The position numbers are program-made. Shown here piece after piece: positions 1 to 63,000 of a stretch of 64,000 nt of DNA. This stretch comes from an uncultured bacterium (GTDB taxonomy: Bacteria; Babelota; Babeliae; Babelales; Vermiphilaceae). Where the stretch lies: the NCBI GenBank assembly GCA_963702025.1, contig OY969699.1:1504001-1568000 (forward strand), written 5' to 3'. The number at the start of each line of letters is the position of its first letter. Within the stretch, counting starts at the first letter, position 1.

Positions 1-3000
1 CTATAAAAGAACGATTCCTCTATAAAGTGCTGGCATTTACCACTGGCACTCTCATGAACCTTGCCACTATTTTAATTAAACCATTGCTCCAATCAAATGA
101 ATCACAAACAAAACTCACTGCGGATCATTTGAATAAAATTCAATGCCCTATTTTCTTTATTCACTCAAACGATGATTCATATTGCCCATTACAAAACATC
201 CAAGATCTAACGGAAAAAGTACCGTGCAAAACATGTTGGTGGATCAATCAATCAGAGCATGCGCTTAATCATATTAAACATAAAAATGAGTATCAAAAAC
301 AGCTGAATATGTTTTTATCGAGTATGCTTGTTTAGTACAAATACTCATAGGCAAATATAATAGCTTTTTGCGTAGTGCCATTATTTTGATATTTGACCGT
401 AACCGGAACATTTGCCGGAATCGAAGAAGCTCCTAATGAGGACTGTCCCAAAATATATGTTTGTGGTGGACCAAATTCAAAGTTAGATATCGGTCGGACG
501 GTGAGACCTACAACCGTTGGCGTTGCTACCGCATAATTATTGGGCGATGCTACTTCCATTGTCACTGTATTATTAATCGTATCTATAGCAATTATCCTAC
601 CCAGATCATCAGTATTGGTGCCATCACTTAATATAATACAATAACCAACCATACTATTTGTTATCACCGAAGGAGAAACATTAATTATGGTGTCGCCAAC
701 ATTAACATCGTGCGTGATGGTACCAATGGGTAGATTTGATGGAATTTCAACAGTAACCTTGTCACCTTGATTAGTACTATCTGTGGTGAAGCTTGCTTGA
801 AGTAATGAAACATTGAAGGGCCAGGACATTTGAGCTGTAGTCATCCCGGGTCCAGTAGCAGTCAGAGTAAACGTTTCAGCTCTAAAATTACCACCGGTAG
901 GCACTGATTCTTGTTGAATTTTTACTTCATTACTCGCTATCTGATCCACTATTGATATGCTATTGGGGTTAATCACATGCGCGGTGTTATTTGGGCAAGT
1001 GGTTGGCGCAACGGTGTTCCATTCATACACGTTTTGAGCTTCAGTGATACAATAAATACGGTATTGATACACAACGCTCGGCGTGTCAGCAAAGCCTACA
1101 CTGATACCCAAAATAAATAACAATCCTATTTCTTTAAACTTCATTGTAATCCCTTTATATATTGGTAATCTTTACCGTTGTATAAACTTCATCACCAAAA
1201 CCCCCTGCTATCCCAAAGCCATCATTTGCTTCAGTGACTGTGCACTGATGTTGTATGGCAAGAGTGGTAACCTTATTTATGAGTATATTCGTTTCAATCA
1301 GCGAATAGGTAGCACCGCCAGAGCTATTCGCAATTGCAGAAGAACCGTAGGCAATAGTTGATCCATCAGTTATATTTTGCAAACGTACTTGGTGTAGCCC
1401 TACTTTATATGCCGGAGCGCTAATTTGAATAGTATAGGTTCCTGGCTGCAAAGTAATTTGATTTGATCCAAGAGAAATAGTGCTTGCTATTGCGGATATG
1501 ACTGTTAAATCTCTTGTCTGCCAAGCCCCTGCGGTAAAAGTACCGCCATTTGTTCCAGTTGATTTTTGGTCAGAGATAAAAACAGGAACAGAACTATTGG
1601 CCCCCGCAGGATCATCAACCACTCCGAGCACCCCCCATGAAGTATCCAAAGCACCTGCTGCTGTATATCTGGCCACCATAATATCACTATCATTCATGCC
1701 GATGGCAACAATATCACCATCACTTTGAATCAAGCAATCAACCCCTTGCGCATTCGATAGCAGTGCTATACCGTTGCTCCCAAAAGAATTATCTAATGAG
1801 CCGGCAGTGGTATACTGCAACACAGCCAAATTACTATCGGAAAAACCAGTAACCACTAAAGATCCATCCGCTTGAAGTGCTACCGCATTTGCTAAAGCGG
1901 TAGATCCTACTGTTTGCAATGTGATCCCACTGGCTCCAAACGTTGTATCTAAAGAGCCACTCGAAGCATAACGGGCAATAAAAGTATTTGTGTCGGAATA
2001 ACCGACACCGATAATATTTTCATTTGCATCAAGCACAATACAATTTAAAGCAGATTCCGAACCCGAAACAGTAGTTACGATACCGTTGATTCCAAAGGAA
2101 TTATCTAGCGTTCCATCGGTATTATAACGAGCGAGTGCAACCTCCCATGCGGAATTTATACGTGCAAACCCACCCACAATAATTTGCCCATTACTCTGAA
2201 TTACCACTGATTGCGCGCAAGCGCCAATGCCAATCTGAGTAGTAACAATACCACCGGCACCAAACGTTGTATCAAGAATACCTGCAGAGGTAAAGCGCAT
2301 AAGAATAAATTGCGATACCCCATTAAGCACTCCTGCACCGGCAACAATAATATTTCCATCAGTTTGCAATGCGCAAGAATAGGCCGAACACCCTCCGCCA
2401 ACCGCTTGCGTTACAATGCCGCTGCTGTTTTGCCCGAAGGTAGTATCCAATGAACCGTCCGTATTATATCGCGCTACTGCAAACTGAGCGCTATTATCTA
2501 ATAATGCAAATCCTGCTACTACTAAGTTGCCATCGCTTTGCAGCGCAATAGAAGTTGCTTGCGCGCTTGATCCTATAGCAGTGGTAACAAGTCCATTTGA
2601 ATTTGAACTGAAGGAACTATCAAAAGAACCATCCGTATTGTAACGATTTACCAAGAACTGCTGGCTATTTCCAATTGTGGCATTTCCAACAACAACAACT
2701 TTGCCATCGCTTTGCAAGACCCCAGCCTGCGATTGTGCCACAGAAATAGTTGGCACCGCGCAATGAACTGAATTAAAAAAAAGCAAAACAAACAATTTTT
2801 TAATAATACCTTTGATCTTCATCGTCACCTACCCACATTATTACCTGCTGCTCGCCAGTTCAAGGCGAGCAGCAGCTTATTATTTCTTACGACCCTATTG
2901 CCACATAATTAAAGTTAGTATTTATTAATGCTGAGTTGCCAACAACCGCAGAAGTGCTGCCCACACTCGCAACGCTCAACGATCCTACGGCGCCGCCCAT

Positions 3001-60000: not shown

Positions 60001-63000
60001 TTTGAGGTGAGCATATTTTTTAATGCATATGCTTTAAAAAGTGCCGGCACCAGCATAGTTAATAATGAAATACCCAACAGAATAAAAAGATCTTGTTTAA
60101 AATAGGCAAAAGAAAGCCGATGACTCTTTTTGCGATAATACAACAAAAGAATTATCCCCGCGCCCAACATGCGCAGACCGACCATTAATGAAAGAGAAAG
60201 CGCTGAAAGCGCATATTTATTGGCAACTGTTGCACTTGCTAAAAACGCAAAACCGAGAAAAACATCAAACATTACGGACAACCTTTGCAAGTGCTATCAA
60301 ATTTATTTAATATTATTTCCTTTAAAAGACTGGCCGCGCCCGCCATAGCTCGTTAGGTCGAGATAATTCATTTCGATGCAATGAGTCCAGCCTTCGCTTT
60401 TTTCTAGCCAGCTCATTAGTTCTAGCATTGAAGCTACGGCGGACAGCCTACGCTAGTTCTATCAAGCCCAAATTATTTCTATATCAATCCGTTAAAAAAC
60501 TGGCCGTGCCAGCCGTCCTTCGAGACGCAGCTTACGCTGCTCCTCAGGATGAGCGGAAGGACGCGTTTACTCCTGAGCTTGCCGAAGGGCTTGGCGTAGG
60601 CTGGTGCCGAGAGCCGGATTCGAACCGGCACAGTGTTGCCACCGCAGGCACCTGAAGCCTGTGCGTCTACCAATTTCGCCATCTCGGCATATTTTCAATT
60701 AAGATTAGAATAAAGCAGTTATAAGAAAATGCAAAGAATAGTTTAAATAGGCCTATTTTTTAAAATTCTGCAAATTTCTTGCCTGCAAGAAAATGGATAT
60801 GACTATGAAAAACCACCTGCCCTGCATCAGCCCCATTATTCACCAATAATTTAAATGATTGGGACCCTGATAACCCTTTTGCTAATTGTTTTGCCATTAG
60901 TAGCATTTGACCAGCAAGATTGGTGTCAGAATCTTGAAATTCGGTAATATCAGCAATATGCCTTTTGGGCAGAATCAAATAGTGGATTGGCGCCTTGGGA
61001 TTAATATCTTTAATCACAATAATTTCTTGATTCTCTGCAATAATTGTTGCTGGTAATTCTCGAGCAATTATTTTACAAAAGATACATGAAGACATGTTAT
61101 TCAATCCAAAAATATTTTTATTATTATTTAAAAGAAGCTGACGGCTCTAGGTTGCTGCTCGTCCGTCTACGCTTTCACTTCGTCAATATCAATTACTAAA
61201 GAAGTTTGTGCTTCCCAGCCGTCGCTCTTCGAGCTATGGCGGGCAGGGCTGCCGGACAGTCTTCGCATCCTGCTTTTCAAATTTTTTGTTCTACCTTATA
61301 GGGTTGGCGAAGCCAGGCGTAGCCCGCTAGGGCGAAGACTGGTGCCGGGGGTCGGACTCGAACCGACATGATGTCAAACATCGCTGGATTTTGAGTCCAG
61401 TGCGTCTACCAATTCCGCCATCCCGGCATTAAAATATGCTATTAATAATAGCGCAAATTACGCTATCGTCAATAAAAAACATCCCCTGTCTATATGCTTA
61501 TTGTTCAGATAACAAAGGCAACGTTCATGATTGGTGTATAAATCGCAACGATAAGTGTCCCAATCATAAGACCCAGAAATACCAGAAGACATGGACCAAA
61601 AAGTGCATTCGCGCGCGTCAAATTTTTTAAAAGGCGTTCTTCATGAAATTCGGCGATCCGAGTCAATATTTCTGTGAGCATCCCTGTCTCTTGCGCCACC
61701 TGCAAGAGCGCAATTGTTTCTTGATCACACAAAGTGGTACTTTCTTTCAATGCATGGGCCATTGTGTTGCCTGCTTTTACCTGATCGAATGCCCCATGTA
61801 ATTGCTTTCTTATATGCTGATTTGCAACAGACTCTTTTACAATATTGCATGCCTGAATAAGTGATGTGCCGCCTTCTAATAAAAGCGCCAGCGATTTAAA
61901 AAATGTTGCCATTGTATTTGCCGTATAAATTGCCGCTAAAAAAGGAACTCGCAATGTCAGAGCATCAATTCGCGATTTCCCCGAAGCGGTAGCTGCATAA
62001 ATTTTGGCACCATAAAAAGCTGCCGCACCGATGAGCATAAGCAAGATCATCTGCCAACTTTGAATAAAATTACTTACTCCAATTAAGAATTTGGTGCTAC
62101 CGGGCAACTCTTTGTGCAACGACCCAAAAACAGCCGTTAGTTGAGGCACCACAACAACTAAAATAATGGCAGTAACCAGTACAAAAAAAGCGGCAGTTAC
62201 TAACGGCAAAAGAAGCGCGCTGCGTAACTTTTTTTTAAATTCAGCAACCGATTCAAGATGTTTGCATAATACCTGCAGGGAACCTATGATATTCCCCGAT
62301 TCTTGTCCCACGCTCATCATTTGAACCATTATCGGACTAAAGAACTTGGGGAATTGGCACAACGCCTGCGATAAAAAGATACCATTATTAACTTGATGGG
62401 CAACGCCAGATGTTGCCGAGCCAAACCCGGTATGCGCGGTCTGGTGCGCAAGCAGAAAAAGTGCTTCAGGAAGCCGCATTCCTGATTTAATCAGCATAGT
62501 AAGTTGGGTGAAATAATGTATTTTATCCTGCAAACTCATCTGTTTTGATAGTCTAAATTTTTTCTGGCGGCAAGAAAGCAGCGCAACCTCTTGCTTTAAT
62601 AATACTCCATCGAGTTCTTCAGGAGTTCGCGCAAAATATATTCCTTTTTTTGTTCCTGCTTGCAGGGTAATGCCTTTCCATGAAAAATAGGGCATAGCTC
62701 TCCTTGTTTAGAATACGGTAAGTTGACGCTCAATTCCCAATGCTGCCAGCAATTGTTCATAGGTAATATTCGTATCAATTTTTATTCTTTTATTGCGATC
62801 GGTTGCTCCCGAAACAATTGTTATATGATTTTGCGTAATTCGTAATGCCTTTGCAATAGTTTTAACGAGCTCCTCATTGGCAAGCCCGCGCTCGGCAGGA
62901 TTCTTTAAATAACCTTTAAGAATGCCTGATTTATCAATGATCCATCTGCTTTGCCCTGAAGAAGGAACCACTTTTATCTGAACAATTAATGCCATGATGT

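Follow-up and report, generated by a model that had tools for sequence, protein, structure and literature searches.

In bacterial protein glycosylation past the inner membrane, lipid-linked donors are the norm and the nucleotide-sugar enzymes stay in the cytoplasm, and SunS and GmaR, whose substrates are a peptide or flagellin, are likewise cytoplasmic and have no export signal. In Clostridioides difficile the GT-A and TPR enzyme SgtA places GlcNAc on Thr of the BclA3 collagen, according to the available part of the source (PMC7157674), and Chlamydia trachomatis GlgA acts outside the cell on host UDP-glucose (PMC4829429, in excerpt). Uptake via the fibrils is described for Mimivirus (PMC9614988, in excerpt), and in COLGALT1 the N-terminal GT1 domain is non-catalytic, the catalytic site being in the GT2 domain (PMC12003778, in excerpt). 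Most LPS genes are absent from the Babeliales according to the available part of PMC4776705.

The window, that is the whole 64-kb stretch of DNA analysed here, comes from a bacterium that likely lives inside protists, and contains a giant collagen gene among nine sister genes and an island of 29 glycan-type genes, an IS5-split gene counted once, where the genome-wide survey's note had given some 35. We see about an even chance that the Thr-rich collagens form knob-tipped trimeric surface fibres, O-glycosylated outside the cytoplasm by a leader-bearing GT2-TPR enzyme with nucleotide sugars of the protist host.

The collagen fibre row

332..1144, minus strand: end gene of the row; leader, beta-sandwich protein
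1155..2828, minus strand: propeller paralog; leader, propeller, phage tail-fibre-type C-terminal domain (phrog_24210, E 8e-29)
2887..4962, minus strand: propeller paralog; leader, propeller, tail-fibre-like shaft sharing 55% identity with the shaft of 9943..12054
5028..7142, minus strand: short fibre; leader, propeller, 37 triplets (a run of 27 and two runs of 5), knob as in the giant fibre
7295..9868, minus strand: propeller paralog; leader, propeller, 430-aa C-terminal part with weak phage-cluster leads only (score 0.86)
9943..12054, minus strand: propeller paralog; leader, propeller, tail-fibre-like shaft (phrog_5342, E 5e-10)
12077..14182, minus strand: propeller paralog; propeller, tail-fibre-like shaft, leader seen by eye and missed by the rule
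14229..18575, minus strand: giant fibre; leader, delta-60 propeller, 283 Gly-X-(Thr) triplets, C1q/BclA-type knob
18579..19352, minus strand: lone knob; leader and knob without collagen
21458..22834, minus strand: Ser/Thr-rich protein; leader, with a homologue within the fibre row of the relative G007

The giant fibre has 1448 residues if translated from a TTG and 1446 from an ATG, and begins with a hydrophobic leader, not an exosporium-targeting one, followed by the propeller (DUF5122 in five stretches; TIGR02608 with 222 bits against a cut-off of 76.5). The collagen part (Collagen, 389 bits) is of the GST/GQT kind, with Pro at 1% and hardly any charged residue; summed over all runs, Thr is at the Y position in 265 of the 283 triplets, and the X position is mainly Ser (146), Gln (81) or Pro (17). 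The longest perfect run has 249 triplets (aa 546–1292) without any Lys and would measure about 217 nm if helical. A six-frame reading of the 1.6-Mb genome shows only one other run of at least eight triplets, and the long run is therefore not a product of chance. The tract uses all four Gly codons and all four Thr codons. As to the assembled length, relatives have tracts of similar size (e.g. 259, 253, 281, 319 and 382 triplets), and exact DNA repeats within the 2.6-kb tract are 158 bp long at most. Parts of the tract are matched by short contigs from public runs, but none extends across all of it.

The C-terminal 161 residues of the giant fibre are 37% identical to the lone knob (E 5e-23) and 34% to the short fibre. 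The knob profile matches the C-terminal domain of F-BclA (PDB 9H38) over its full length with E 9e-8, and also C1q domains. BclA_C, which the survey gave for the lone knob, matches it with E 2e-9, but at 37.6 bits falls just below the Pfam cut-off of 38. Modelled as a trimer the knob scores 0.95 against 0.00 for the best control, with a run agreement of at least 95% and pLDDT of at least 90, on a mark that 20 of 30 solved pairs and one of 23 single chains pass; the pass may stem from resemblance to solved C1q/BclA trimers. A BclA-like trimeric fibre with a leader peptide is thus supported. No anchor was found on the fibre proteins, a point against reading them as glycosylated surface fibres. 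The survey's description of propeller, G-x-T collagen and knob in the giant fibre (its g01547), of the 27-triplet run in the short fibre (g01543), of the knob similarities including the lone knob (g01548), and of five further propeller paralogs in the row agrees with these results.

The glycosylation island

19585..21123, plus strand: double GT2; leader, with homologues adjoining fibre rows in several relatives
25230..28099, minus strand: GT6, methyltransferase, GT11-like protein; leaders on all
28349..39265, mixed strands: NanM-like protein, TylF, FkbM and other methyltransferases, GT2, unknown enzymes
39561..47542, plus strand: FkbM-GT2, WecB-type UDP-GlcNAc 2-epimerase, Anp1-like protein, GT2, GT4, Gmd1, unknown protein; all with leaders
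47553..51285, minus strand: unknown protein, methyltransferase, GT17
51651..53563, mixed strands: Gmd2 and a leader-bearing sulfotransferase
53662..54585, plus strand: separate protein homologous to the N-terminal GT-A domain of COLGALT1; leader seen by eye
55487..60290, mixed strands: two leader-bearing methyltransferases (one of them FkbM), two EamA/DMT transporters
56268..57509, minus strand: GT2-TPR protein glycosyltransferase, candidate initiating enzyme for collagen Thr; leader, DAE motif, related to SunS/GmaR

An IS5 element (30038–30850) splits one gene in the third group, where the leader at 28349 lies in another frame, and an IS4-type element, which has duplicated 10 bp of its target, sits between GT17 and its leader (51193–51285). 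Gmd2 (51651–52766) matches TIGR01472 with 606 bits against a cut-off of 415, and has a leader and no other start codon within 12 residues of the first strand. The EamA/DMT proteins are encoded at 57609–58565, with a weak match to nucleotide-sugar transporters, and at 59238–60290.

The survey had called the island eukaryote-flavoured, a label that is overstated for GT6 (PF03414, 176.7 bits against a cut-off of 25), which does match ABO (E 4e-37) but has its nearest solved relative in Bacteroides BoGT6a (E 9e-54). Its homologue of procollagen galactosyltransferase does match COLGALT1 (E 2e-32 over about 230 aa), but the 307-aa product covers only residues 14–254 of the 520-aa chain, that is the non-catalytic N-terminal GT1 domain, and has no counterpart of the catalytic C-terminal GT2 domain. 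A role as COLGALT1-type collagen galactosyltransferase is not supported for this gene, given the missing catalytic domain and the absence of Lys from the 249-triplet run.

Export leaders

Leaders were called by a rule of our own (not SignalP) that asks for a basic n-region and a 9-residue hydrophobic core, with 8 false positives in 467. By this rule 24 of the 29 island proteins have a leader, three more have one by eye, and for the other two the leader is cut off by an IS element or lies in another frame. The positive charge followed by a short hydrophobic core is the same as in the fibre leaders. The rule flags 703 of 1212 soluble ORFs (58%) in this genome, which counts against the preferred reading; of 39 NCBIfam-named proteins taken as a control within the genome it flags 3, among them SecA, falsely. 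GalU-like and GlmU-like proteins and one GT2 protein have no N-terminal extension. An SDR and a thioredoxin-reductase-like protein also carry leaders, which are therefore not peculiar to glycan enzymes. The survey's note had noticed neither the enzyme leaders nor the GT2-TPR protein.

For Gmd, leaders were found on 44 of 76 proteins from the bacterium's own class, across seven families, and on none of 79 from other taxa. No ATG lies within 12 residues of the first strand in 37 of the 44, and in 28 there is no ATG, GTG or TTG. A quick tree implies repeated gain or loss of the leader, with 11 changes in all, 4 or more of them forced. Since nearly all island enzymes have predicted leaders, fibre glycosylation would likely take place outside the cytoplasm with host building blocks.

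Occurrence in related genomes

The profile of the GT2-TPR family matches SunS (E 6e-13), GmaR (E 1e-9) and TPR proteins, and its homologues match PF00535 and TPR families. The acidic DXD-type metal motif is DAE in all 59 aligned rows, and DAE or DAD in 106 of 120 homologues, 103 of which have a leader by the rule. In a comparison of kin, partly with incomplete genomes, the gene occurs in 21 of the 22 genomes that have a knob and in 6 of the 20 that have none; the five exceptions tested all hold other collagens, three of them within 1–5 kb, and none of five double negatives tested does. Among 36 fresh genomes eight have both GT2-TPR and collagen and 26 have neither (34 of 36 concordant), the exceptions being G106, with collagen only, and G020, with GT2-TPR only. 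The two genes are at most 6 kb apart in six of the eight; in the present genome the distance to the fibre is 37 kb. The family and its distribution indicate that GT2-TPR is likely a collagen-modifying enzyme.

Across a set of 60 collagen ORFs, Thr is at Y in 5610 of 7173 triplets, and 45 of 55 with intact starts have leaders. Island homologues occur in 7 of 17 regions flanking fibre genes (6 of 12 new genomes) and in none of 20 control regions; the other six new knob genomes have none within the fetched flanks. These counts support a genetic link of the fibres with glycosylation genes, and the co-occurrence makes Thr O-glycosylation of the collagen region likely. The survey's pairing of a BclA-like fibre with a glycosylation kit holds to this extent, but 10 of 15 fresh genomes with a leader-bearing Gmd have no collagen match, and the island as a whole is therefore not collagen-specific; much of it may serve other glycans. 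There could then be two systems: GT2-TPR would add at most a short sugar to the fibres, and the bulk of the exported island would make something else, whether a polysaccharide or glycolipid that takes the place of LPS at the surface or the glycans of other proteins. The presence of Gmd in 111 of 201 genomes against 26 with a knob, and a second leader-bearing cluster 1.3 Mb away (UDP-glucose dehydrogenase and two GT2), favour this division, but it fits poorly with the enrichment beside fibre rows, with the occurrence of the COLGALT-like gene only where collagen is encoded (4 of 9 such genomes and none of the 27 others) and with the absence of any Wzx/Wzy or ABC glycan exporter among the named ORFs of the window, and we consider it somewhat unlikely.

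Donor supply and proposed pathway

SAM synthetase, APS kinase, ManC and Fcl were searched for in the one-contig, 95%-complete genome and not found, and SAM, PAPS and GDP-sugars would therefore be host-made. Of 43 genomes with a leader-bearing Gmd, 15 yielded no ManC, compared with 1 of 28 that have no such Gmd; the other 28 of the 43 keep ManC, which counts against host supply. NAD(P)-dependent enzymes moreover need cofactors that are absent from the normal periplasm, counting against an exported pathway. The host cytosol contains SAM, PAPS, NAD(P) and GDP-sugars and would fill the missing Fcl step if the enzymes were instead effectors that the bacterium delivers to the cytosol or vacuole of its host, there to act on host molecules, with the fibres as a separate adhesin family. 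Two secretins in the genome and the many secreted effectors reported in the available parts of two Dependentiae papers (PMC6561590, PMC4378268) agree with such a role, but GT2-TPR tracks the bacterium's own collagen, and Met-(Glu/Asp/Gln/Asn) after the leader, a mark found in 256 of 671 other leader-bearing proteins, is missing from each of the 24 island and 8 fibre proteins checked, so that effectors are improbable if we interpret the mark correctly. A further reading is cytoplasmic glycosylation before export, with the N-terminal segments as membrane tethers or bypassed by internal starts and EamA proteins (four in the genome, two at the island end) importing SAM and nucleotide sugars: many leader-bearing ManC and Fcl and several Gmd do keep a Met, a possible start, between leader and catalytic domain, and two named GT2-TPR relatives with readable starts (phage, Bacillus) have no leader, but the fibre-like charge pattern, the 28 Gmds without a nearby start and the repeated gain and loss of leaders make it quite unlikely.

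In the preferred pathway, glycosylation outside the cytoplasm, the Sec-type leaders read from the sequences of the fibres, GT2-TPR and nearly all island enzymes would take these proteins unfolded to the periplasm, and some may pass on via a secretin system. To judge from family and co-occurrence, GT2-TPR would put the first sugar on Thr, and the COLGALT-domain protein, GT2s, GT6, the GT11-like protein, methyltransferases and sulfotransferase, or some of these, would extend and cap the glycan with SAM, PAPS and GDP-sugars from the host, as the absent genes suggest. The knob is predicted to nucleate the trimer, the sugars might stabilise the almost proline-free, uncharged helix, and the fibres would give the LPS-poor cell a glycan-dense coat for adhesion to the host or protection within it. 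A bolder version is possible, if doubtful, in which Sec sends a whole nucleotide-sugar pathway (protein O-glycosyltransferase, extenders, Gmd, epimerase, methyl- and sulfotransferases) into a Golgi-like extracytoplasmic compartment, where it is fed with host SAM, PAPS, NAD(P) and GDP/UDP-sugars; it would glycosylate a nearly proline-free collagen that needs sugars to fold, giving a 200-nm glycan nap in place of LPS, possibly with blood-group-like caps (GT11-like and GT6) and built from components that giant viruses infecting the same hosts also have.

Comparison with known systems

The literature searches made here turned up no report of exported enzymes glycosylating bacterial collagen fibres. 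If true, an O-glycosyltransferase and a collagen that both carry leaders would, as a pair, breach the rule of lipid-linked donors and cytoplasmic enzymes, and the glycan pathways that these parasites export would have a named acceptor in collagen. The fibres are also a first candidate surface coat for a widespread LPS-poor phylum, and the system is suited to asking if sugars on Thr can stabilise a nearly uncharged collagen in which Pro makes up only 1%.

Against the available excerpts on Bacillus BclA/F-BclA (PMC12357932; PDB 9H38), the Thr/Ser-rich collagen stalk, the C-terminal C1q/TNF-like trimeric knob and the nearby glycosyltransferase genes are the same, whereas here a leader and delta-60 propeller replace the exosporium leader, sister genes carry phage tail-fibre ends in place of the knob, and there is no spore. 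SunS and GmaR (PDB 7MSP, 22AO) share profile homology over the GT-A domain, for SunS into the TPR region, but the family here has leaders in most homologues. As excerpted, the inclusion-lumen glycogen synthesis of Chlamydia (PMC4829429) has nucleotide-sugar enzymes outside the bacterium on host nucleotide sugar, as proposed here, but with type III secretion and a storage polymer in place of Sec-type leaders, a tailoring pathway and a protein acceptor. Mimivirus, likewise a parasite of protists, also encodes glycan enzymes and collagens of its own (PMC9614988, in excerpt), and 332..1144 has full-length structural homologues in Klosneuvirus, Hokovirus and Pithovirus, but the Mimivirus enzyme L230 modifies hydroxylysine, for which the long run here offers no Lys. 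COLGALT1 is alike only in its non-catalytic domain. SgtA/BclA3 (PMC7157674, in excerpt) is also a GT-A and TPR enzyme encoded near a Thr-rich collagen, with GPT triplets against GST/GQT here; here Sec leaders are predicted on both enzyme and collagen in a Gram-negative intracellular non-spore-former. The locus is best read as BclA/SgtA-like Thr O-glycosylation that may have been shifted outside the cytoplasm and be fed by the host.

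Organization of the collagen fibre row

The features referred to below are the following.

332-19352: fibre row, with the propeller in seven genes, plus one lone-knob gene and one gene of 270 aa
332-1144: the 270-aa gene, last of the fibre row, conserved and with a leader
14229-18575 (-): giant collagen fibre gene
19585-59219: glycan island, 29 glycan-type genes followed by two EamA transporters
56268-57509 (-): putative glycosyltransferase of the SunS/GmaR/SgtA type, here GT2-TPR

The giant collagen/propeller fibre row described in the genome-wide survey's note is real; the placement of the genome in Babeliae/Dependentiae also follows that note. 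The product of ORF 14229-18575 combines a predicted Sec-type leader and five DUF5122 stretches with 283 Gly-X-Y triplets and, at the C-terminus, a domain of 156 aa. The longest unbroken run, as assembled, is 249 triplets (aa 546-1292). It is made up of 33.5% Gly, 32% Thr, 18% Ser, 11% Gln and 1.2% Pro, lacks Lys, contains three charged residues, and would be about 217 nm long at 0.29 nm per residue (PMC8968730). Every Gly and Thr codon is in use in the tract and no exact repeat in it exceeds 158 bp, so the tract is not an echo of assembly, and relatives also have long collagen tracts; an assembly artefact is thereby ruled out as the source of the repeat. Pieces of the tract are present in four low-depth soil runs from one study, and no RNA run is listed among the public runs that contain the sequence. 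The short public contigs match pieces only, with none spanning the whole tract, and two joints in these matches (sides <30 letters) resemble collagens of other organisms. No anchor was found on the fibres; a lipoprotein anchor was rejected, since the counterparts in the related genome G007 do not show the loose lipobox of the giant fibre.

Besides the knob, the C-terminal modules interchanged among the genes of the row are a tail-fibre-like shaft and another domain of tail-fibre type, three in all. By profile, the knob matches the C-terminal domain of F-BclA (9H38, E 9e-8) and C1q domains; of 201 genomes of the class, 26 carry it, with up to 12 copies, frequently in rows. Its three-copy model scored 0.95 and the best control 0.00 (run agreement at least 95%, pLDDT at least 90), on a scale where the trimer mark was reached by 20/30 solved pairs and 1/23 single chains, and the high score of this predicted trimer may be explained by likeness to solved trimers. 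The single-sequence model of the tail-fibre-like shaft had a pLDDT of 38 and was not used as evidence. An eighth propeller, elsewhere in the genome (G000:C1:1379602-1386393, region L203), forms the N-terminus of a 2263-aa Ig/cadherin-like stalk protein with a leader; since it heads the stalk, the propeller may be the tip rather than the base of the fibre. Many collagens of relatives have no propeller. The 2263-aa protein adjoins similar proteins of 1410 and 319 aa. Three compared genomes, G109, G063 and G158, have 75, 54 and 35 collagen matches, with open frames including 2317, 2018 and 1998 aa.

The product of 332-1144 (model pLDDT 88) has full-length structural matches to uncharacterised proteins of Klosneuvirus KNV1, Hokovirus HKV1 and Pithovirus LCPAC403, with E 7e-26 to 2e-20, TM 0.65-0.69 and 24-29% identity. 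The predicted fold is a jelly-roll-like sandwich with an inserted barrel akin to phage tail domains; the PDB gave no whole-chain match, only sub-domain matches with Z 10-11, and a scan of viral contigs gave none.

Glycan island

The island encodes GT2, GT4, GT6, GT17, Anp1-like and GT11-like enzymes, a sulfotransferase, WecB, two GDP-mannose 4,6-dehydratases (Gmd) and about a dozen methyltransferases. Its "eukaryote-flavoured" character turned out thinner than had been claimed. For the GT6, Bacteroides BoGT6a (E 9e-54) is a closer match than ABO (E 4e-37), leaving an origin from a host eukaryote unsupported, and the COLGALT-like protein matches COLGALT1 in the N-terminal domain only. In COLGALT1 that domain is non-catalytic (PMC12003778), and the 249-triplet run has no Lys, which rules out COLGALT1-type chemistry. 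Three island genes, a multi-domain GT2, the GT17 and a NanM-like methyltransferase, are broken by two IS elements and one frameshift (window 30038-30850, 49916-51166, 28266-28377), reflecting either glycan variation or decay. An AAA_14/DUF4143 ATPase and a MazF-like gene are inserted at 23009-25112. A second cluster at G000:C1:165200-169081 (L202) contains a leader-bearing UDP-glucose dehydrogenase and two leader-bearing GT2 genes.

Predicted export leaders

Our own rule asks for a basic n-region and a nine-residue hydrophobic core, and gave 8/467 false positives when applied at internal Met. It assigns a leader to 24 of the 29 island genes, and inspection by eye adds three. The remaining two genes are broken: an IS flanked by a 10-bp target duplication separates the GT17 from its leader, and the leader of 28349 lies in a different frame. 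Controls were run because the background is high, the rule flagging 703 of 1212 soluble ORFs genome-wide; the comparison figure for Chromulinavorax in PMC6561590 is 44% of CDSs. In nine evenly spaced genome regions, the rule flagged 3/39 NCBIfam-named proteins (14 of the 39 belong to one ribosomal cluster) versus 49/85 unnamed ones. The three named proteins were SecA (false), an SDR (L193:13876-14718) and a thioredoxin-reductase-like protein (L199:1951-2850). Elsewhere in the genome, no leader is seen on the GalU-like enzyme, the GlmU-like enzyme or one GT2. An FAD oxidase (L197:9009-9908) carries a leader as do the SDR and the thioredoxin-reductase-like protein, and to judge from these sequences the export of cofactor-dependent redox enzymes may be a wider trait of this genome. 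About six Cys-rich, outer-membrane-protein-like paralogs with leaders form an array at G000:C1:134326-144056.

Across the class, 44 of 76 Gmds from seven families have a leader versus 0/79 from other taxa, a count that excludes L118 (duplicate of G183) and second copies in some genomes and places G009 as leader-less though its second Gmd, removed by the length filter, has one. Within 12 aa of the first strand, 37 of the leader-bearing Gmds had no ATG and 28 no start codon at all. A quick tree including 27 of the 79 outgroup rows needs 11 gains or losses of the leader, at least four of them forced. Leader-less and leader-bearing Gmds are adjacent in G019 (L025, G019:C6) and G195 (L096, G195:C1); the two G195 copies group as sisters in the tree and would suit a comparison of location. 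In relatives, leaders were seen by eye on 7/12 ManC and 8/19 Fcl, many of which retain a Met before the domain.

Missing donor supply

The genome is a single contig and 95% complete, and searches of it for domains of SAM synthetase, APS kinase and mannose-phosphate isomerase found none. The sole NTP transferases resemble GalU and GlmU, and tblastn with 20 ManC and 25/55 Fcl queries found neither enzyme. In-house donors are thus missing for the methyltransferases, the sulfotransferase, the two Gmds and the GT11-like enzyme. ManC was not found in 15/43 genomes with a leader-bearing Gmd (it is kept in 28/43) versus 1/28 without the leader, among genomes that are kin and partly incomplete and with G009 misplaced in the no-leader group; in the single no-leader case, G176, the Gmd is fused behind another domain. 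MetK is present in 10/71 genomes.

GT2-TPR and its link to the collagens

Neither Pfam nor NCBIfam names the product of 56268-57509. GT2 and TPR families are found in its homologues, its profile matches SunS and GmaR, and it has an invariant DAE motif. Leaders are predicted on 103 of 120 homologues. The enzyme is present in 21/22 knob-bearing versus 6/20 knob-less genomes. Of those six, the five that were tested each have other collagens, which are Thr-rich and in three genomes lie within 1-5 kb, and collagen was found in 0/5 tested of the 14 genomes lacking both knob and enzyme. Among 36 fresh genomes, eight have both enzyme and collagen, one the enzyme only, one collagen only and 26 neither; six of the eight pairs lie within 6 kb, and the contrast holds inside genera g4 and g46. 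A scan of viral contigs for GT2-TPR gave no match. A distant relative on the Cupriavidus metallidurans CH34 megaplasmid (L250, 3606-4841) adjoins a collagen gene that is rich in Thr (28 Thr in 42 triplets) and has a lipoprotein-like start.

The island had been read as a kit for the fibres, and this stands in part. Genomes with the COLGALT-domain gene are a subset of those with collagen (4/9 versus 0/27), but the leader-bearing Gmd (5/15) does not track collagen, which argues against the whole island being such a kit. Island homologues occur in 7/17 flank regions versus 0/20 control regions, and in the flanks of 6 of 12 genomes outside the profile. In the first set, rows with such homologues in their flanks are those of G004, G007, G013, G014, G019 and one G015 contig, and none was found beside the rows of G002 or G011.

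Proposed mechanism and location

From the sequences, domains, co-occurrence and missing supply genes, and from the predicted leaders and trimer, we infer location, sugars and function as follows. Sec would export both fibres and enzymes, GT2-TPR would O-glycosylate collagen Thr outside the cytoplasm, part of the island would extend the glycan using host donors, the knob would form the trimer, and the fibres would be displayed as a coat on the cell. We give this joint mechanism an even chance. The order is reported to lack most LPS genes, and the two secretins of this genome are consistent with the two gspD copies of TM6 (both PMC4776705).

The enzymes might instead be located in the host cytosol. 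N-termini of the Met-(Glu/Asp/Gln/Asn) type are NatB substrates in eukaryotes, and such a pair just after the hydrophobic core may label a class of host-cytosol proteins. It is present in 256/671 other leader-bearing proteins versus 0/24 island and 0/8 fibre proteins, which weakly favours the periplasm as the location of the enzymes. A role of the fibres in uptake may be suggested by analogy with Mimivirus (PMC9614988).

Comparison with known systems

In our literature search, neither collagen nor exported glycan enzymes of this phylum were the subject of any paper found, and the word "collagen" is absent from the main texts of PMC4776705, PMC6561590, PMC4378268 and PMC12172432, whose supplements may list such genes. 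What appears to be new is an exported glycan pathway joined with a GT2-TPR/Thr-collagen pairing, with cross-genome counts and a named candidate acceptor. The nearest known system is that of C. difficile, where SgtA is reported to put GlcNAc on Thr of the BclA3 collagen, and GT2-TPR shares the SgtA architecture (PMC7157674). Unlike BclA3/SgtA, there is no spore here and both partners have predicted leaders, and we therefore propose a system working alike rather than a member of the same one.
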